From: Lytechinus pictus
Taxonomy: Eukaryota
Direction: 5' to 3'
NCBI RefSeq assembly: GCF_037042905.1
Contig: NC_087251.1
Span: forward strand, 25,174,001 to 25,238,000
Length of the DNA: 64,000 nt
Part shown: in pieces, positions 6,001 to 43,700 of the stretch
Position numbering within the stretch: position 1 is the first letter of the stretch
How the letters are laid out: every line of letters begins with the position of its first letter
Program-made: the position numbers and the translations under genes
Notes under the pieces: generated by a model
What the model was told of the DNA's origin: nothing
The model's database searches: none
What the model saw: the letters and a program-made list of their open reading frames with translations, nothing else

Positions 6001-9000
6001 GAACAGTAGATTGATGTATCCTAGATTTACCCTGGTGAAGATTTGGCATTATGCCATTATCTCAATGATTCGAAACAAACAAGGTAGAAAAACAGGAAGA
6101 GATTTAACATGTAATTCATACACTGGTTCATTCATTCAAAATAACACAAAACATAAAGTGCAGGTGCATATAGTATTTATCTAGTCTGAAATGTGAATAT
6201 TGTCACATTTGCTTTAACCTAAGTTGATAAATCAGAGTAAATATGATCAGTCACAAGTTGAACTTTAATCGGTGGATGTTATTGTTTTAAACATTGCCTG
6301 ACAGTCACTGTGGAATAGACATACAACTGCAATATGGTACATATTGTGATGAGTAATGAATAAATATTTTGAGAACTTACTCGTATGGTTCGCTTTGATA
6401 CTTGAGACCTAATCTCTTTCTACTCAGATCAACTGGGATCCGTTTATACCAGAAATCCCAATCCATTGCACCACGACACATACCATCTCCTTGTGATCGA
6501 TATTCAAAGGTATCGGCCGATATCGAATCGACGGTGGGACAGACCACAGTCGTTCTGGGCAGGGAAGCAGAAATGGTTTTAAAAAATGCAAGGAGTCCGT
6601 CAGTAAGGAAAAAGGAAATAATAATTTAAAAACAGCTTTCCATTAACAAAACAAATCCGTTTGTGGCGCATTCTTTCAAGTCAAAGTTTTTTTTTAGCGA
6701 AGGAAACTTTTTCTGAAAATTTTTTAAGATTCTTGATGAATTTCACCCTAATGAAATAATGGTGTTGAAAACGTGGAATGTTTGCATGAAACTGACAATG
6801 TATCGCTTGTTTAAATTGTTAAAATGATGTCCAACGTGTTTTCTCCCGAATACTAGAGAGAACTACCCTTAAACTCGAGCCATTACCTATTGAGGGCTAT
6901 TTCTGTTAGCAATGGAACGAGCCAATTCGGAGAGCATTCGCAATGGGCGTCGAGGAACGTGACCACTTGACCGCGAGACTGCTCCGCGCCAAAGATACGG
7001 GATCGAATCAAACCTTCTCGTTTGCTGTTACGGTAGAGTTTAACTTTACCTTGGAATTGAGGTTCATCTATGTATTGCTGGAGTCTGGCTTGTAGGTGAG
7101 CTGAAACGGAACAGGAATTTCTATAATGATTAGATGATCATCATCATGATGCTGTTGATGATGATGATTATGATGACGATCATGATGATGAAGATGATGA
7201 CGATGACGATAATGATGGTGATGATGATGATGTTGTTGATGACAATAATGCTGATTAAACTTTGATTCAACAAAGAGATCATGACGGGTTTTTTTTAAAC
7301 AATAGTGAATACGATCATAAGATTGTGTGCTCATGTACATGGTGTATAGGGGGCAAGACGAGCTGAGGGTGGCGCCATTTTTTTCTTCACTCACTGGTAT
7401 AATACGGGTAATATATATTTACACTATCCATGCCAGTCTTTTGATATTTCCTTTTCTCCCATTTTCCTTTCCCCTCCTCGATGTTTACTTAAAAGGGTGT
7501 CCCTGCCCCTGAAACACCACTCCTGTTTGTATGTAACAAGTTGTAACTATATTGTGTCAGATTGCTAAACAGTTTTTCATTATCGATTACTTCTTTCCAT
7601 CAAATCATTAAAAAAAAAACTTATAATAAAACAGAGGTCATAATATTATCCACCTGTGATATCATGATCTTGTAGATCTGTGTAACTTGTCTTTTCCACT
7701 CATAACTTACATTTATCGCTGAAATCATCGACTAATATCACTTCTTGGAGTAAATTTGGAGGCGATGTGTTGATGATACTGTGTACCGTTCGTAGGAGAG
7801 TTGACCATCCTTCGTTATGAAACACCACCACTACTGATGTATTTGGTAGATTGGTCGGATAGTGCCAGTATCTGCATCTAAAATGACATCAGTTAAATTG
7901 AACGATTAGGTAACCCACTTTCTTACATTGTCGAGACGTTCATCTAGATTTGACTGGCATCTTCAAAAGTTAAATAAGACTAGTATAGGCTACTTTTTTA
8001 TGATTTAATTATGCTGGCATCCTTCATTCATAATACATGTATGATTAAAGGAAGTGTAATTGATAGTAAATTCACTAAGATTTGTAATGTTTAACATTTA
8101 AAGTAAAGTCAAATGATTATTCCATACTGTGATTTCAACATATAGCAAATAAATATTTAACATGAGCTGACATAGAGTCAGGGAAAAATAGGTCCGGTCA
8201 GTGAAGAATTATGAAGATAGATGTGACCATTTTTGGAACCATCCTTTCAGTTTTGGTCTATACATGAAAAAAAAAAACGTGCATCAATCCATGATGTTCA
8301 TGCCGACTAAGAATGGATAATGAACAATATTGTTAGCTCAGGCGATAGAGCGGGTGGTTCGTTTTTCCGGTGGCCCGTCTTCGATTGGTGCGCTAGTGCC
8401 TTTTAGTAAGGAATAATTTTTAATCATCATTACTAGCAGTAGCGTACCGTGACTCGGAGGAGACAAAGCATTGGGGGGGCAAAGCATTGTTCACAGACAA
8501 TGCACTGCCCCCCCCCAATGCTTTGTCTCCTGCGGTTCACGGTACGCTACTGATTACTAGGTCCCTCGGACAGGAACTTAAGCCTTTGGTCCTCTTTTTG
8601 TTTTGCTTACAAGCATTCATGCTTTCTTAGTGATCAGGTAAAAAAGAAATTACCATCAAGTTATTTTTCGTGAGCATCATACTTTTTCATTGCTTCGTAT
8701 TATCCACTGTGGAATGACCCACGTTTTTTTTTCACGATCACAGCTTCTTCAAAATATTACCTCCCAGTGACGTTTATCCTGCCACAAGCAAAATATTGAC
8801 TCATGAGATTTGAGCATGCGCACAAACTTACTCGTCTTGTCTAATATCATTCACAGTCCTGTCGAGTGCGATTCGGTCACTGATGACCATGTTGAAGCCA
8901 TATTCTTTAAAGCTCTGATCATATTTCTCCTGATCACTGGGGTTCAGCATGACGGGGCGACCATATTCCCCCGCGCCCTGACGACGCTCGTCCTCGGGAG

Positions 9001-33012: not shown

Positions 33013-33747
33013 TGTCAAGGCCAAGATCATCTACATGTATAAGATTTCCTGCATATGAAAAAAAGGTAGAATTTTTTTATCAGCCTAGGGGACATTCAGC
33101 AACATCAGCTCAGCAAATGTTTCAACTTTCAAAGTTATAAGGAAATTGTTGGCCATGAAAAACACAACAAATTTGTACAGTAGTAGATCTATATAAAAAT
33201 ACAGATGGGGCCCTAAAGCAACGTGGGTCCTAAGACTATGCACCACTCATCATGCATGCAGTTTTTAATGGCAAATGCACACTCTGTGTGTGGAACTGTG
33301 ACTGCACTGCCTGCAGAGTGACAAACGATTTCTATTCATTTTTTTCTAGAGGCTTCAGTGAATCTCTAAATGAAGAGAAAACCCACAACTGCTTGGAATT
33401 TTGGATTATATTCGCTGCAATTTCATATTATCCTATAATAATATGAACATATTTTAGAAATTGAGGCACAGGAAATACTAATTTTTTGCATGATAACTCG
33501 AGTGCGTATCTTTAGGACACCTTCTACATCGGGCGGCAAAATCAAGAGGTGTTTTGAAAACATGTTCGGATTTTCGTATTATATTAGTGAGTATTGTGAT
33601 ATTTTCTTCTTGGTTAATGATTTTTAGAATGTTTGCCACAAATAAGTGAAAGATAATTTGTAAAAATATTAAAATTGGCATAGTTATTGTTTGTATTACA
33701 AAGTGCGTAGCTTTAGGTCCCCCCATCATACATTTGAAATAGCTATG

Positions 33748-33960
33748 CAGCCCCCAAGTCAGTTCTTATTTTCATCAATTGTTCATGATTTAATAATCAT
33801 CATCACAATTGAGGCACAAATCATTATCATCAGTCACTACTTTCATCACCACAATTATCATTATCATCACTAGTGTCACTGTCATCATCATCATCATCAA
33901 TCAATCAATCAATCCAATCATCATGATCACCATCATCATCACCATCACTTATCATCATTG

Positions 33961-33991
<31 letters not shown>

Positions 33992-34628
33992 CATCATCAT
34001 GACATCACCATCATCATCATGAATCATCATCTTCACTCAACTCATTATCAACAGCATCATCAACATCATCAGTCATCATCGTCACCATTCAAGTTCAATT
34101 CAAGAACATGACAGATCATTTTTTAATCAATATTAATCATCCTCATTATCAGGGCGTGAACCACCAATCGTCACTCAATCAGCCCCCAAGTCAGTTCTTA
34201 TTTTCATCAATTGTTCATGATTTCATAATCATCATCACAATTGAGGCAGAAATCATTATCATCAGTCACTATCATCACCATAATTATCATCATTATCATG
34301 ATCACTGTCATCATCATCATCAATAATCAATCAAATCATGATCACCATCGTGCATCATCACCATCACAAATTATCATATCATTGTCATCGCCGTCGTCAT
34401 TGTCATCGATCATCATCATCATCATCATTCATCATCATCTTTACTCAACTCATCATCAACAACAGTCAACGGCATCATCATCTGACATCAACATTAACAA
34501 CAACATCAGCCATCATCGTCACCATTCAAGTTCAATTCAGGAACATGACAAATCATTTTTTAATCAATAATATTAATCATCCTCATTATCAAGGCATGCT
34601 TAACCACCAATTGATCATCACTCAATCA
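33748..34628. repeat. Tandem duplication (~432-bp period) containing (CAT)n microsatellite
   Basis: CAGCCCCCAAGTCAGTTCTTATTTTCATCAATTGTTCATGATTT starts at 33748 and 34180; both units end ..ATTAATCATCCTCATTATCA..ACCACCAAT..TCACTCAATC. Confidence 0.9.
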
Positions 34629-34971
34629 ATTCCTCCTCGGGTGGTTCCTATTAATAGGGACGTTGAGGAGTATAATCAAGAAGAAGAATTCAGCTCCATG
34701 TGTCTGATTGTGCAGTGACACACTCGCTTGCACTGTGACTGTGAGTGTGAGCGTGTCTACACAGCAGGGAAGTCCATGCAGTGATGCACGGGCGGAGAGC
34801 AACGACAAAGACGGAGCCAGTCAGCCAGGCCAAGCCACAGCTAGCTGGCCTGGCGGAGTTTTCAGCGCCCGGCTTCTCCATCGGGGCTCGGGGGCTGAAC
34901 TTCTGAAGCCCCAAAGCAAGCACTTATTACGTCAAACCAGCAATAATTATGCACAAGCAAATACAATTTAC

Positions 34972-35110
34972 CTCTAAATTCGGTCTAACTCAAAGGTAAG
35001 CCACTATATCAGCTCCGGATCAGCTCACTTTCCCTTTCACACCATATTTAGAGCCGGAAGAAGAACGCAAATCAAAACAAAGTTATTCGCTCTCGATCTC
35101 CGCGATAGCT
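34972..35110 (-). promoter_or_regulatory. Candidate non-coding first exon / promoter of ASB3
   Basis: The ATG exon of ASB3 begins at a splice acceptor (ttcatatgcag, boundary 33048), so an upstream exon must exist. The CpG-richer zone 34700-35240 has a good minus-strand donor AG|GTAAAT at 34972/34971 and an ETS-like CCGGAAG near 35054. The 5' end is approximate. Confidence 0.45.
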
Positions 35111-35800
35111 AGCTAGCTCTGGCCAGTCCCTGAATTAACTGAAGTAAGAGATAATTATTTTTAAAGACCGTTGCTTTCGCTATCCAGTCCTCGTCACGAA
35201 AATTTAGAATATCTGTGCACCTTCCCGGGCACCTTCCCCCAAAGAATTAAGAACATACATCATTTACATTATGTAGTGTAAATTAGATCGATGGCGCACC
35301 CAAGGTGAATGTACAACTTTCAAATTTGACCAAAGAATTTTGTTGCAGAGATTGCTAAGGCTCAGTATATAGATATAAGCACAAAAAGGGAATTAAATAG
35401 GAATGCCCCCGCCCTTCGGAGAAGAGCAGAATTTTCATAATTGTTTCATTTTAAAAGAACATTTGTAAAACCAAGGAGCAAGCTCCTTGGTAAAACTTTA
35501 TCTATGCTGTCGCAATCCCGAATTATAATGTGGGGACATCTTTTCATGGTGAATTGTCGTAATCATCTCTGGAGTGCAAGGTCACCAGTCTTCGCGAGTA
35601 AATTGTTTCGTTATAAATCGTGGGAACAAGTAACTCGTGAGAGTAAGAAAAAAAACCTGTCATAAATGAACTTATGGGCTCCGTAGAATGCAGCCAATGG
35701 ATGGAATCTGAAGAAACTTAAATTTTTTTATATGTTTTTTTTAAATATGTTTATAAAAAGGAGGAGTCTCAATAACACATCAACGCCATGAACTTTATTA

Positions 35801-35881
35801 TATAGTTATAACTTTTCATCTATTCTTTTTCTTTCTCCAACTTTATAGTTATAACTTTTCATCTATTCTTTTTCTTTCTCC
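35801..35881. repeat. Short tandem duplication (43-bp period)
   Basis: TATAGTTATAACTTTTCATCTATTCTTTTTCTTTCTCC at 35801 and 35844. Confidence 0.9.
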
Positions 35882-36155
35882 TCCCTTAAAATTGCCAGCC
35901 AATTAAACTACGTACGTGCCTAGTTCCGCCAAAGGGATGCACTTAAAAAGTTCTTTGTTTGTCAAAAACATGTTCCTTTATCTTGGACATACACCCCATA
36001 CATCCCAAAGATTTTCCTGGGGGTGCTGCATGCGTATAATCATTCTCTCTGGGAATTCTGGTAGGTCTGTGCACGGAAAACCCAGAAAATGTGAAAAATG
36101 TAACCAAAATGACATCACGTACGTTATTTTGATGATGATGATGATGTGATGATGA

Positions 36156-36186
36156 CATAGAGATGTATACTAATTATATCTCTATG
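36156..36186. mobile_element. 31-bp CATAG...CTATG micro-element / possible excision footprint
   Basis: GATGATGA|CATAGAGATGTATACTAATTATATCTCTATG|GATGATGA; first 21 bp identical to 44976-44996. Confidence 0.7.
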
Positions 36187-36221
36187 GATGATGATGATCA
36201 TTTAAATTACTTAACTCTATT

Positions 36222-36376
36222 CAGGGGCCGCGGAAGCGGGGGGGGGGGGCTTCGATCAGCCCCCCACACTTTTCCTAATCCATGTACAAAAACGCAAAAA
36301 TGACCATACGATTGTGATTTTTTACATGGTCAGCCCCCCCCCCCCCCCCACTTTGAAAACCGTTCTGTGGCCTCTG
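36222..36376. mobile_element. Small CAGGGG MITE
   Basis: CAGGGGCCGCGGAA / TTCTGTGGCCTCTG imperfect TIRs with poly-G and poly-C arms. Confidence 0.6.
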
Positions 36377-36399
36377 CTATTATCTATAGAAAATGATGA

Positions 36400-36487
36400 C
36401 AAACCACTTGCACTTCTAATTTTGTATTTGATTGGCTGGTACGGTACGCGCGCGTAGAAGCAAGACGAGGTACGGTACCGTCGACAG
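36400..36487 (+). promoter_or_regulatory. Candidate SDCCAG8 core promoter upstream of the TIR insertion
   Basis: GATTGGCT (reverse CCAAT box) at about 36430 followed by CpG-rich GTACGCGCGCGTAG. Without the 36488-37672 insertion this would lie about 140 bp from the ATG. Confidence 0.35.
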
Positions 36488-37672
36488 CAACGAACGTAGA
36501 GGGCAGCAACACACAAGCGTGTTGCTCTAAGGAAGGTCAACTCCGCTCGAATTTTGTGACCACTCTAAAAAATAAGGTGGGGTTTTGGGAAATTTGTCGA
36601 GTTGATTTTTTTTCATTTGTTAATTTCAAATATTTTTTAATGAACAATTATTAGATCGGTTATTCTGGGTATAAATAGTAAAAATATTACTTTTATTTTT
36701 AAAGAAAATATTTAGCTTAAATAATCATGATTTTGACATTTTTCCTCATTTTGGAATATTAAGCCTGTGACGAGGATACCTCATATCTCTTATTTTCTTC
36801 TGCTGAATTTCGCTGCACCACTAATAAATGCATAGACAACCACCGTAATAATCGAGGTCATTTTTCTGGCCTGGGTGCGCCGAGTCTGGGCCGGTCGCGC
36901 AGCTAGCTAGTGACCGTGATGATGCGCTGGGGCTTCAGGCGACTCGTCATAGATCTAGCAACTTAGACAATGACGTCTAATTTGCCTGGCCTGATTTGAA
37001 GTGTAATGGCTTCAGGGCTGATGTTTATCAACGATGATTGTTCAAGGTTAGATTTCAAATTTTAAATGTCATTTGACTTTTAAGTCTATAAATCTGAAAT
37101 AAAGGCGCTGTATCCCCGAAATCCGGGTCTAAATTTCAACTCTGAGTCCGAGACCATGGCATGGACGGCGAAAAAACAACCCATGCATCGGATGCATTGC
37201 ATTGGCTGCGCGCTGCGCTGCAGCTGCACTGTGATGATGGGTTCAGCGAAGAGCTCAGAGAAAATAAGGTGGTTATATTCAATCCCGAAATGCTTTGCGA
37301 GTGGTCACAAAATCGTCTCGACGCAAATCACCTAATACAGCCGTCTGGTGAAATCGCTGATAACAACAATCACCGATTTGGTAGTAATTTTAGTTTCCTG
37401 AAACTTATATTTGTAAAGTTTTAAATATCAAAGTATGTTTTTATATGTATGTATATTCCTCAACATATTTTTAAAGTTATCTTTGATATTGTTGTAGTCA
37501 TATTCTTCCATATTCGTTTTTTGATCGCTACTAATTTGTTGTTGTATTGGATCGGCATTTGATTTCGTTGGCATGAACAATAAAATATGCGCGCAGCTCA
37601 GCTGCATGCGCGTATCGAGTTGACCTTCCTTATAGCAACACGCTTGTGTGTTGCTGCCCTCTACGTTCGTTG
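36488..37672. mobile_element. 1185-bp non-autonomous hAT-like element with 56-bp TIRs and 8-bp TSD
   Basis: GTCGACAG at 36480-36487 and 37673-37680; TIRs 36488-36543 and 37617-37672 match at 55/56 positions; no transposase ORF. Confidence 0.92.
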
Positions 37673-37762
37673 GTCGACAGTAATTGATCGGCAACTTCAT
37701 CTAAGGTCAATATTGGAGGAGAGGCAGTTTTAAAAATTTCGATCTTAGTTTTACTTTCCATC

Positions 37763-40700
37763 ATGGATGATGATTTAGGATTCACCCTTGCCTTATCAGG
37801 AAGAGGATTAAGGGGTATGTATTATTTAAAGATGAACCGCTTGTTCGTAGGCGTAGCGTAGCCAGGTCGTCGTACAGAACCGTATCGTACCTCCAATGAA
37901 GACGGAGCAGAGCAACTACAAAGCCAAGGGCAAGGGCAGGGCTAGGCCAGCGCCAGTCAGCCAAGGGAGCCCGGGCGGCAAGCGGCGTAGGGGCACTCTG
38001 CGCCGCGCTGCGCTAGATTCTTTACCAAATATTCACAACACGGCACAGCAGCAAACAAGGGCGTAGTCGAGGATGTGCATCTTGTTAATGTTAGAGAAAA
38101 AGATCATCATGAAGATGGCTATGTTAAATGTAAACATCGGTAAGGTTTTCCCAGTCTTCTCAAGATGTTTTTCTTGTTTTTTTAATGATTTTTTTTACTT
38201 TTTGTTTAAAAATGGAATCAATAATGATATCGTTTAAATTTAAATATCGGAAATGAAGTTGTAACGTCCATGCGCAGTGAGTCGCCATCGGCGATAATCG
38301 GCGGTCTTCAACCTTCAATTTTGCACACAAAAAAATAATTCTTACCCAAATCTTTATATGAGATTGATGGCAAAATGCTATGGAATCGGTTAGTACCACA
38401 TTTAACTCACATTTTTGATGATTTCTGCTTGCAGAATGGTGATATCGTGATGCTTGTTGATTTCTTCAAAATGGGCGCTAGCGGTGGCAAATTTGCCGAT
38501 CTTTTGCCAATATTTTCATGAATACTGAACTCATCCTAAAGAAATTATCACTAAAGGGTAATTTTAGGTCGCTTTTCACGTTGACGATGTCAGATTTTAA
38601 GGATATTGGCTAGTTTTTGAGATAATGACCGTCCGCGAAGTATGGACATGCGCGAAGTTTGGACTCACTGTCATACATTGAGACGCCACCCCCTCTTATT
38701 TTGATAACAATTGTCACCCCCACTTTCAAAATGAAATGATCGTGAGCATTTTTTATAATCTATATTTTGATACCAAATATTGGTAACTTGAGCAGGCAGT
38801 TTTGGAAACATCGATTGCTTAGTGTGGGCGTGTCAAATCGTCACCCGAGATAAATGGCAGCTAAAATTTGCACCGTTCGGACCAAGTTTGCAAGTCTGAG
38901 TTTGACTGCGCTACACTCCTTTTTCTTTTGCTGGATCTGCTCCACAGTTGAAACTAACCATAGCGATATATATGCAATATACCTTGGTTGATTTTGTTGT
39001 CTGGGATGATAGCTCATTAATTAGTGACATGCCAAATATTTTACAATGTTGATAAAAATTTGTGTCCTTAAAGGACAAGTCCATCCCAACAAAAAGTTGA
39101 TTTGAATAAAAAGAGAAAAATCCAACGAGCATAACACTGAAAATTTTATCAAAATCGGATGTGAAATAAGAAAGTTATGACATTTTTAAGTTTCGCCTAA
39201 TTTCACATAATAGTTATATGCACATCCTGGTCGGTATGCAAATGAGGCAACTGATGACATCACTCACTCACTTTTTCTTTTGTATTTTATTATTTGAAAT
39301 ATGAAATATTCAAATTTTCTCATTGTCCTGTGAAACAAAGTTTTATTTCTCACTGAACATGTGGAGTTACCATTGCTTAACATGATATGATTCAGTCAAG
39401 TTAGTCCTTATTGTCAAATCTGTAAAAAATGAAATATTGTATAATTCAAACAATAAAAAACAAAAGAAATAGTGAGTGAGGGATATCATCGATTCTCTCA
39501 TATGCATGTGACTTAATTGTGCATAGAACTATTTGGTGAAAAGTAAGTGAAATTTCAAAATGTCATAACTTTCTTATTTTACATCCGATTTTGATGAAAT
39601 TTTCAGCATTATGCTTGTCTGATTTTTCTCTGTTGATTCAAAACAACTTTTTTCTGAGGTGGACTTGACCTTTAAAACAGTTCAAATCACTACATGTACA
39701 TCTACATAAAGCACCACCATAGAGTGTTGCAAGAGAAAAGATCATCAATCAATGACATGTTACTCACCACAAACATGTACATATAAATATCTACAGAAAA
39801 TTTGCTGACGAGGTGGATACAAAACTGATGAATATGTGTTCGACAGCTCAACCAGGCTTTGACAAAGCATTGTCTCATGGGAATGAATTCTCCATAGCGA
39901 CTTGAGCAATCCTCTAAGAATGCAGATTTGAGATTACATCTATATACCTAAATTGGCCATGCCATGCTTTTATGCAGAAACATTTTTTTTTAAAATAAGT
40001 CGTTTCAGCATTTACTTTCTCAAAAAAGTCTTTTTCTGAATGGTTGCTAGATTATGACAGCCTTGTCCTAATATACATGTATTTATGGTAATATTAGGCC
40101 CATTATGGAATGGAAACAAATATCTGTCTTAAAATTGCAGGGAGGGCATCAGACTCGATTAATGAGCTAAGGGCAACACTTAACAGTAGTCCAAGGAGGC
40201 GTACTTTAGGTAGTCACCTACCCACACCTAGACACTCATCCTCCAGCCTTTCCAAGAGCACCTCCAGAAGATTGCAACACAGGAGTTTGTCTTCACCAAG
40301 GGATCTTGAGCCAGGAAGTCTTCAAAACACAAGGTAATCCGATTCTCTTCTCAAAACAGGGTAGAGTGTCAGAAGTAGTTGATTTTTGACTTAATTACTC
40401 ATGAATCACATATTTTTTCAGTTGTATATCATTTTTATTTCAATGATTTCATGCATTCAACGATTTGTTGCAGAAATGTATGAAAAAAAACATACACAAA
40501 ACTGGGTTATGGTTAACATCAATTACCGGTACTCATAGCTCCCCCTTATTTTCTATTAAAGATGGTGAATTTCTTAATCATTTACATGTAAGTTGAAAAT
40601 GGAATCACTGGGTGTTGGTCAAATTAATACTGGTAGGTAGTATTTCCTGGACTGGTTTATAGTTAATTTAATATCTCTTTATTTGTAAGGTTTTTGTTGA

Positions 40701-43700
40701 ACTATAGTCATCTTGCTAATGTTTATATAAATCCATCATGTTTTGTGCAGGTTATCTGATAATAGAGCACTTGACAACTACAACAATGCTGTAGACAGGC
40801 TCAGAACTCTACTTCTAAGCAATAGTAATCAAGCAAGTACATTGCCTGGTAGAGGTCGAAGGTCATCGGAAGTTTTCTCTCAGAATGGCCAGCATGAGGT
40901 GAATGATTTCAGCATTTGTGTGTGTACATTCAATCAAATCAAGTCTAAACTCTGTATTCTCTTACTTTGACAATTTACACACACTCTCTCCCTCTTATTT
41001 GTACATTCTACAAGTTATGAACTTGTCGATTGGCATTAGTCATCTAGCAAACATCTCTTCCATCCACCACCTTCTTTTTCCTTCCTCCTCCTCCCCCTCT
41101 GACTTTCTCTATTCCCCTACCTTTCCAATAAACAGAAATATACTGGTAGCATGAAGAGGAGGAGATGAGATTTTTCTTTTTAGGAACAAATATCGTTCAA
41201 TTGTATGAACACTGAGTGAAATGCCATTATTTTCTTTTCTTTTGTAACAATTCATGCGCTAGGCTCCCTTTGCAATGGAGGATACCTACACCTACAAACA
41301 GTCCCCTAGACTTCCATTAACAACCAGCGTGTCTAAAGTGCACACTGAGCCCAACTCGCAACAGCTGCTACAGATTATCAACAGCCAAAGTGCATACATT
41401 CAACAGTTAGAGGGAGAGAATAAGTACTGCAGGGTAAGGAGCATATTTTTCCAATCATACGCAGCTCATCATAATGTGAACTTTGACTCGTTGAACTTTG
41501 AGCTAATTGATTACTTGATTCATTGAAAATGATTCCAGTTTCTCAATGTGCGATTTTGTTGATATGTCTAAAAAATAAATTAAAGTAGTGAAATGATGAT
41601 TGTATATTGAGAAAATGTAAAGAAAAGTCTATTCAAAAGAAGAAAAATTATAAGATATATTCAAACTAGCGAAGAAGCAGATATGGCACATTTGGAAAAA
41701 AAAGTTGTTGATGATTTTGTTTCATTTTGTCATTAAAGACACCAAGGGAATATAAATCGGATGCATTTATCTGGACTATATTTTATTTTGTGCATTCCAA
41801 ATCATAGTGTTGAAATGAAATCCATGAATGGATATTCTTTTATTTTTGTAGTATATTTTGTGTATGTTTATCATTAGGAGGAGCTCCATGGTCTAAAAGG
41901 AAGGACAGAGGCGATTGTAGCAGAGAATGTCAAACTGAATGACGAGATGAAAGATATGCTCATTAAAACAGCTCTGGAAGATAGTCCATTTAGACAGGTA
42001 TTGGTCAAAGTGATAGAAAGATATTAAAAAATAGAGAGACTGGAGGGGATGGGGGAGTTGATGATATATAAACAAGAAGATGGCTACAGATAGATAACAT
42101 TTGAGGTGTAAGAAAAGGAAGAAATGACAGAGGATGTTTAAAATGAAAGTATGATTTAATATCACCCATATATAAACTGGGTTTCAAAAGAAACAATGGT
42201 TACAATGGCACTACACAAATTCCACTCATTTACACAGGCTAGCTTCAATAATCGTTACTAAGCACATGTCAATAATTGTAAAGTGTTTATCTGTGTGTGG
42301 CTGAGTGAGATACACACAGACACACACCATGTTCAGATCCCCCGCTTACCGGGACATTCCTGGGGGATTTGTGTGTGACTGTGTGATTGTTCCAGTCATT
42401 TAAAATTTGATGTAAATTTCCTGTAGCTTCTTTGTGAATGAACCAATCACTAAAACATGCCTATGAAGGACAAGTGTAAGAAACTGGAAATTTGTTGAAT
42501 CCCATCTCATTTCGAATGGTCTTTCTTTTGCCATTTTGTGACTTTGGATTCTGAAACCGATTGGTGTGTGGAGTTATAGCCCAAAGCTGCCAACTAATTT
42601 ATTTTAACGATACTAGTATGTTTTTTCATAATCAAAAGTGACAAAATATGAGTTTTTATTGCAAAATATGTTTTTTGTTAAATTTGATTGGCATGCTTCA
42701 TACATGTACATGTATGTGTAATTTATCAATTTTTGTACTAAAATATGTTTTTTCCTTCAAAATATGATTTTTATTATGGATCAGTATGTTTTTTGGTCAA
42801 CAGAGGTTGGCAGCTCTGATAGCCTCTCTTTGATTGAACCAATCTCTTAATTATATTAATGTCTGAGCAAAATGAGTTCTATTAGATTTGTTAATAAGAG
42901 AGCGGATCGGATCCTTGTTATTTGATGAAAATATCCTTATCTCAATATTAGGACCAGCCATGATACTCAAATTATTATTATTTGCTATCCATTATACTAA
43001 ATTTACATGTATACAAAATAGATGCCTGGTCATGTGTTCGCACACAACCAATCATCAGATTAGGAGCATAGTATGTATGTATAATTTCTCATATTATTAC
43101 AGTGTTTGTTACTGTAAAATGTTTAAATATATAAGAGTTTTAATGTGTTTTTATCCCTTTGTAATGGTTTTAATCTAGGATGAACAGCCATCCTCAATGC
43201 AAGGTAACCAAGAAAGACGTTCTAACCAGAGACAACATCCTCAAGCTCCGGATAGACTCATGTTTGCCCAATGGAGTGAAGATCTTGTAAGTCATGACAC
43301 TGTCAATTTCATTAAATCACATAATTCCTTTTTAGTTGATGGACCATAATTACAAGGAAAAGAATATTTTGTAGTTTTAGTTTTTACTGTGTCCAAAATA
43401 AAGTGTATAAAGAAGAGTTGTTCTTTATCATGATAATTGATTACTGATAATTTTTTTTTGTTTTGTTACATATTGTTCCATTTATTAGATGACATCATGA
43501 GCTTCCCCAATAAATTCGATCATCTTGTTTTACAGTTTGTTTCATATAAACTGTTGAAATATGAGTACATCGATTGGATACATTTTTGTATATTCATAAA
43601 GTTAATTATATTCATTAAATGAAATGAAAAGTCTTATTTGATACTGCATTGTTTCCTTTGCAGGAAAAACTGAAGAAAATGCATAGTATGCGAGTAAAGA

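Follow-up and report, generated by a model that had tools for sequence, protein, structure and literature searches.

When a transposon is found between the promoter elements of a gene and its start codon, it may be asked whether the element is now spliced out as an intron of the 5' untranslated region (UTR), whether it has taken over as promoter, or whether it simply lies there. This question is raised by a stretch of 64,000 nucleotides (nt) of Lytechinus pictus DNA (contig NC_087251.1 of assembly GCF_037042905.1, forward strand, positions 25,174,001 to 25,238,000), called the window below, in which an element with terminal inverted repeats (TIRs) lies just ahead of the coding sequence of SDCCAG8. 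An earlier note, made from the sequence alone, had proposed that the element may be removed as a new 5'-UTR intron or may supply a new promoter, and that the only mismatch between its TIRs improves a splice acceptor. From the observations described here, we consider it probable that the element belongs to an abundant family of non-autonomous cut-and-paste DNA transposons, that its recent insertion into the SDCCAG8 core promoter was an ordinary event, that the element is not an intron, and that the mismatch is neutral.

The element occupies 1185 base pairs (bp), from 36488 to 37672, and its right end lies 90 nt before the SDCCAG8 ATG at 37763. Its 2 arms are complementary at 55 of 56 positions (BLAST E value for the arm pair, 5e-22), the sole mismatch falling at arm position 40; both ends read CAACG, and the whole is flanked by a perfect 8-bp target-site duplication (TSD), GTCGACAG. 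In these respects our measurements agree with what had been described earlier, and the coordinates are collected in Table 1. The element has a G+C content of 0.39 and is no richer in A and T than the window, and a subterminal inverted pair of 20 nt is present within the interior (36551-36570 and 37294-37313). The longest stop-free frames run to 63-92 amino acids; no Pfam family was found in the 2 longest plus-strand frames, which were the frames scanned, and Rfam gave 0 matches across 36000-38300. No second copy of the element was found within the window, where one extra 14-mer match, at 7798-7811, has surroundings that show no element. The TIRs, the TSD, the lack of coding sequence, and a high copy number with homogeneous copies, the last known indirectly from read depth, are the marks of a non-autonomous TIR element resembling a miniature inverted-repeat transposable element (MITE). 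We also observed in each arm a stretch resembling the CTCF core, at 36492-36506 on the plus strand and 37654-37668 on the minus strand, each agreeing at 11 of 14 positions with the consensus and the 2 being convergent.

The gene to the right of the element is well defined. A 17-exon GT-AG model beginning at ATG 37763 translates exactly to the 789-amino-acid record P0001, which is named as the SDCCAG8 homolog of L. pictus (100% identity), and the Pfam family CCCAP was found in 3 of the 4 SDCCAG8 reading frames tested downstream of exon 2. The start codon is sound, since the N-terminus is identical in an L. variegatus record and in an older L. pictus record. To locate the 5' end of the RNA and to gauge the abundance of the element, we used reads mapped on 34640-41600 from four data sets: for the same species (organism A), a raw stranded RNA run and a contig set, X1; for a related species (organism B), one contig set from DNA and another, probably from RNA. 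Coverage of exons 2-4 in the raw RNA run was 33-41 per bin in the sense orientation, as against at most 1.05 in the other, and the per-base depth was about 82, 65 and 65 on exons 2, 3 and 4, respectively. Five molecules end at 37701, where the depth beside is 7, and this is the only site in the stretch where many molecules end; we read it as the 5' end of SDCCAG8 RNA. The sense letters observed in 37669-37901 numbered 4,380. A taper from depth 7 at 37701 to 83 at the exon 1 donor predicts 5,130 letters, and a flat exon-2 depth carried back to 37669, as if an upstream exon were spliced at 37636, predicts 12,118.

Counted from the start at 37701, the right end of the element falls at -29, the AG proposed as acceptor lies at -66 and the CCAAT box lies as far off as -1270, and thus the insertion splits the core promoter, not the leader. 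For an intron in the 5' UTR this is an adverse result, since a start downstream of 37680 had been named beforehand as refuting it, and such a start is what this one RNA run displays. The observation that the element separates the ATG from a CCAAT box and a CpG patch is, on the other hand, supported (ATTGG at 36431; 9 CpG in 36430-36487). The CCAAT/CpG block has been displaced by 1193 bp, and subtraction of the insert and one TSD places the CCAAT box at -77 to -73. CCAAT boxes are usually found at about -60 to -100. Passages of PMC3820735 describe NFY/CCAAT motifs of human promoters as concentrated in the -150/+50 interval.

The family to which the element belongs is abundant. Summed contig depth, which is no true copy number and is taken here only to mean hundreds of copies, amounted in organism B DNA to 9,011-72,868 at the listed places within the element, which is 145 to 1175 times the depth of the exon-2 contig (62). 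The organism B copies are near-uniform at several sites, 66,847 of 66,894 agreeing at 36764, for instance, and diverge by 5-6% from the window copy; single-copy, mostly intronic pieces of the gene diverge by 5.8%. The family is older than the split of the 2 species, or entered both, and it has stayed active. Between three organism A contigs and the window copy, by comparison, there are just 5 differences in 782 letters (about 0.6%), and hence the SDCCAG8 copy is young. RNA depth over the element was 4-11 and alike on both strands, as would be expected from copies elsewhere, and the letters specific to this copy were absent from all RNA reads and contigs at the diagnostic places listed: the family letter was present in 15 of 15 reads at 36915-36916 and in 7 of 7 at 37384 and 37386, and likewise in the contigs of set X1. 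The outer arm gave 0 matches among metagenome, viral and prokaryote genome contigs. Matches of an inner 18-mer in metagenomes were taken as chance, none of the 38 loci giving an alignment of more than 39 nt (best E value, 0.002). A search of the literature, with Repbase, Dfam and the supplements of papers lying outside it, turned up, among the papers listed, none that deals with the element or with its locus; a name for the family may already exist in Repbase, in Dfam or in the PMC12130899 datasets.

We next consider the splice signals themselves. The right arm reads TTGACCTTCCTTATAG followed by C, with TAG at 37633-37635, and the left arm read in the same way gives TTAGAG; both had been reported accurately, as had the donor-like GT sites at 36470, 36536 and 36577. 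Two crude splice models were built from the 16 introns of SDCCAG8, one base-specific and the other recording only pyrimidine or purine, and their results disagree. By the base-specific model, the AG at 37635 scores 0.41 bits, which is under all 16 real acceptors (0.8-11.6 by leave-one-out), ranks 21st among 63 AGs, and is equalled or exceeded by 298 of 840 intronic decoys. When the left-type letter is placed in the same context, an AG persists two bases upstream, scoring 2.56 bits in the base-specific model and 4.65 bits in the pyrimidine/purine model, so that the mismatch changes the best acceptor by -2.2 bits in the former model and by +1.2 bits in the latter; a 2-nt shift of an acceptor within the leader has no reading-frame cost. 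The AG at 37635 is also predicted to be paired (P 0.96-1.00) in all three RNA folds, either in the 9-bp hairpin of the arm or in the 56-bp arm duplex, and the latter would bury the pyrimidine tract, the proposed branch point and the donor at 36536 as well. Branch points usually lie 18-40 nt before the AG. The branch-like TGAC is indeed present, but its A (37623) is only about 12-13 nt away, nearer than is usual. The proposal that the mismatch improves an acceptor is therefore not upheld: an AG is there with either letter, the 2 models differ even in the sign of the effect, and the AG is buried in a stem in all three folds. One arm change is expected at the divergence of this copy (with 0.56-0.64% divergence, the 112 letters of the arms have a probability of 0.47-0.51 of containing one change or more). 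Nor is there a need to invoke selection; the mismatch looks like an ordinary mutation.

Several observations weigh against the interpretation given above. In the raw RNA run, all 83 sense reads at 40235 and all 82 at 40273 depart from the window letter, and the residues encoded by these changes are those found in the older L. pictus record; the run represents another haplotype, which may lack the insertion, and for the insertion allele we infer the start rather than see it. The 5' end at 37701 consists of 5 molecules from about 6% of that one run. Set X1 has the exon-2 letters of the window (0 of 192 differ) and expresses SDCCAG8 (contig depth 15.7). In the pyrimidine/purine model the AG at 37635 is a respectable acceptor, at 5.83 bits (the 16 real ones have a median of 5.55), ranking second among the 63 AGs, with 61 of 840 intronic decoys as high, and the GT at 36470 is a fair donor, at 6.7 bits, the real donors having a median of 6.5 and 23 of 871 decoys scoring at least as well. 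Finally, no joint at 37635 is among the 15 joints listed, but the repeat at 39068-39675 crowds both joints and loose ends, and 1096 joints, 3530 loose ends and 697 variant rows lie beyond those listed.

With these points taken into account, we favor a simple insertion into the promoter. A transposase encoded elsewhere, of the hAT or P type to judge from the TSD and TIRs, would have recognized the tips of a donor copy and excised it, and the copy would then have been inserted with an 8-bp stagger into accessible DNA of a previously empty promoter, between the CCAAT/CpG block and the start site. The inserted copy would be inert. Being upstream of the mRNA start, it would lie outside the normal transcript and would not be removed as an intron, and the initiation region and 62-nt leader would remain intact downstream, presumably with the same start in use, while the CCAAT box would have been moved from about -75 to about -1270. 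The likeliest effect, if there is any, would be changed, and probably lower, transcription from the insertion allele; possibly there is no effect, if the GC-rich start of intron 1 or the end of the element compensates.

One alternative concerns the mismatch only and is compatible with such an insertion. The mismatch could be structural, an inner unit with inverted ends of 14-16 bp having once inserted into the loop of a small hairpin element, whose arms were of 39 bp, and having duplicated TA; the two unlike letters would be the old loop, and the same asymmetry would be found in most copies, family-wide. The mismatch does lie exactly between the outer 39-bp and inner 16-bp blocks, and at each end TA is found on its inner side; organism B DNA contains a 55-bp mini hairpin that joins 36512 to 37651 through 8 other letters (depth 123.6), as well as a contig that follows 37275-37631 (depth 160) and then has 25 letters unaligned. 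In set X1, moreover, arm-containing bins are deeper than the interior (134.8 versus 17-29). Yet another organism B contig, 36497-37021, crosses the left boundary intact, so that outer and inner blocks together are the family form; the 25 unaligned letters could reflect splicing or truncation; the depth of the arms can be inflated by a single well-expressed host transcript; and the flanks on the inner side read CTAA and TTAT, as opposed to the TTAA duplication that passages of PMC9587614 give for Kolobok. We regard a composite origin of the mismatch as rather unlikely. Two details of the organism B contigs may be recorded here. In the 55-bp mini hairpin, the left break coincides exactly with the point at which the first stem of the hairpin inside the arm ends, and this molecule may be the scar of an excision or have arisen by internal deletion. 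The contig end at 37631 is, on the minus strand, three letters beyond an AG, and this contig may represent a copy exonised through an inward-facing arm acceptor, or the inner unit without the outer arm.

A second alternative concerns only the superfamily label, which the earlier note had given as hAT. A terminus of the form YARNG is a feature of hAT elements, and the TSDs of Ac-type hAT elements have T at position 2 and A at position 7; P elements have TSDs of 7-8 bp and CA...TG ends. The part of the hAT assignment that stands is the 8-bp TSD and the CAACG tips, which fit YARNG, and GTCGACAG has T at 2 and A at 7, although at one site; these points argue against the P superfamily. An 8-bp TSD and a beginning with CA are also found in P elements, and the element fits in this respect too, but the features are shared with hAT and are not diagnostic. 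Passages of PMC3517528 give hAT elements an 8-bp TSD and TIRs of 5-27 bp. Because the 56-bp arms are longer than this, which favors P, the element was not filed as hAT, even though the tip bound by the enzyme may be shorter. The Buster TSD pattern nnnTAnnn of the same passages is not matched at the one site available, which has GA at positions 4-5, and the Ac-type pattern was not found in the passages of PMC3942097. Membership in the P superfamily seems to us rather doubtful, and we describe the element as MITE-like, of the 8-bp TSD class and with hAT-like tips.

The remaining alternatives would replace the favored account of an inert insertion. The right end of the element, which is at -29 and would fill the region to about -500, might serve as a replacement promoter, driving the old start or a new start inside the element. 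An ATTGG (37201-37205) and stretches rich in CpG are present in the interior, the right arm reads TTATAG owing to the mismatch letter, and set X1, with the exon-2 letters of the window, expresses the gene. However, the TTATAG is at about -70 from the observed start, not at -30, set X1 may or may not carry the insertion, and the copy's own letters are missing from reads and contigs at the listed places; the promoter activity is hypothetical, and we think it quite unlikely. We give least credence to a new 5'-UTR intron, in which the CCAAT block of the insertion allele would start transcription upstream of or inside the left arm, one of the donors at 36470, 36536 or 36577 would be joined to the AG at 37635, thereby rescuing expression, and the mismatch would be kept as helpful: the donor at 36470, the pyrimidine/purine score of the acceptor, a spliced leader made harmless by the lack of ATG in 37636-37762, an RNA run possibly without the insertion, and the introners reported from another sea urchin, S. 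purpuratus, in passages of PMC12130899, stand opposed to the RNA 5' ends at 37701, the base-specific score, the AG that the left-type letter leaves two bases upstream, the paired acceptor with its buried tract, branch point and donor, and the short branch distance, which together make it very improbable. Were it true, SDCCAG8 would carry a segregating, transposon-made 5'-UTR intron and a new first exon despite the 56-bp arm duplex, and promoter relocation and intron gain in one step could be compared between two alleles, with intron gain caught in progress.

Table 1. Positions of the element, of the SDCCAG8 first exons and of the associated signals (window coordinates)
Feature	Positions	Strand	Evidence
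CCAAT box (ATTGG on plus strand, from 36431)	36430..36438	-	sequence
CpG-rich proximal promoter patch, 9 CpG in 58 nt, G+C 0.60, cut off from start by insertion	36430..36487	.	sequence
Left TSD copy, GTCGACAG	36480..36487	+	sequence
Left TIR, 56 bp, starts CAACG; internal 8-bp hairpin 36505-36526	36488..36543	+	sequence, fold
Non-coding interior, 1073 bp; high-copy in organisms A and B	36544..37616	.	Pfam/Rfam negatives, read depth
Right TIR, 56 bp; internal 9-bp hairpin 37634-37655	37617..37672	-	sequence, fold
Single arm mismatch, T (versus C at 36527)	37633	.	sequence
AG proposed as acceptor; 66 nt upstream of RNA 5' end; base-paired in all folds	37634..37635	+	RNA reads, splice models, folds
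Right TSD copy	37673..37680	+	sequence
SDCCAG8 exon 1: RNA 5' ends about 37701, 62-nt leader, ATG 37763, donor GTATGT at 37815	37701..37814	+	RNA reads, gene model
Alternative first coding segment, annotated isoform X1 (MKMAMLNVNI), ATG 38109, donor GTAAGG at 38141; minor form	38109..38140	+	protein record, gene model

The surroundings of the insertion contain several further features. At the 5' end of SDCCAG8, a contig of set X1 with depth 2.4 spans 37786-38134, from exon 1 into the intron, with 33 more letters unaligned, and points to an extended exon 1 as a minor form; depth over 37902-38134 was 0 in the raw RNA run. Upstream, an ankyrin-repeat gene on the minus strand (33030-35162), in which Pfam identified ankyrin only and which is putatively ASB3-like, is arranged head-to-head with SDCCAG8. 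Its non-coding exon 34971-35162, seen in a contig of set X1, is about 2.5 kb from the SDCCAG8 start, and the insertion therefore also widens a divergent promoter pair. The first intron of this gene contains a degenerate CAT-rich repeat (33790-34620) with a 437-bp internal duplication, and RNA of plus orientation (depth about 2) was observed at 34640-34872, antisense to the same intron. An upstream plus-strand exon near 34997, where there is a strong GT site, was considered and rejected, the sense depth being 0 in 34873-35105.

Other repeats are close by. About 50 bp upstream of the CCAAT box is a 155-bp hairpin element (36222-36376) with imperfect inverted ends, flanked by the 5-bp direct repeat CTATT (36217-36221 and 36377-36381), and it is very abundant, its bin reaching a depth of 121,985 in organism B DNA. 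Intron 1 of SDCCAG8 contains a Kolobok-like non-autonomous element at 39068-39675, flanked on each side by TTAA and with arms that are long but imperfect, which reaches a depth of 3-5 million in organism B DNA. A further high-copy repeat of intron 1, at about 38250-38880 (bins of 61,000-135,000 in organism B DNA), had no clear inverted ends that we could find.

In most respects the insertion is a routine case: there are many such elements in sea-urchin genomes, and a second one lies within 110 bp in the SDCCAG8 promoter region. Its value is modest, and is that of a natural experiment in which a conserved centrosome/cilium gene has received a 1.2-kb insertion at -29. The exon-2 single-nucleotide polymorphisms permit allele-specific expression to be followed, and hence an estimate of how far an echinoderm promoter depends on CCAAT spacing. 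We regard the locus as mildly useful as a cis-regulatory allele, and as otherwise ordinary.

Among known systems, introners (Gozashti et al. 2025, PMC12130899) are, like the present element, recent TIR DNA elements with GT and AG near their ends. However, introners are spliced out of exons, and the SDCCAG8 copy is upstream of the RNA start observed in one run of another haplotype; on present evidence it is not an introner. Maize Ds and Ds1 (PMC5395267) are likewise non-autonomous, of the 8-bp-TSD class, and have cryptic splice sites near their termini, the ends of Ds1 supplying both splice donors and acceptors; Ds differs in having 11-bp TIRs and in acting inside transcribed sequence, whereas the site discussed here belongs to a 56-bp duplex that lies beyond the normal transcript. 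There is some likeness to Kolobok elements (PMC9587614) in the inner block of the arms, which has purines at its start and is similar to the end of the repeat flanked by TTAA at 39068-39675, but in place of the TTAA duplication with RR...YY termini the inner block is flanked by CTAA and TTAT, and the whole element by an 8-bp TSD. Mar and the BuT2 MITEs of Drosophila, which are non-autonomous hAT elements (PMC3517528, PMC3942097), differ from ours in arm length (5-27 bp, as compared with 56 bp with an internal hairpin) and, for BuT2, in size (532-927 bp, as compared with 1185 bp at a G+C content of 0.39), and the TSD observed here departs from the Buster pattern. Mar and BuT2 nevertheless share with the SDCCAG8 element a non-coding sequence bounded by TIRs, an 8-bp TSD, many near-identical copies, and a location adjacent to genes.

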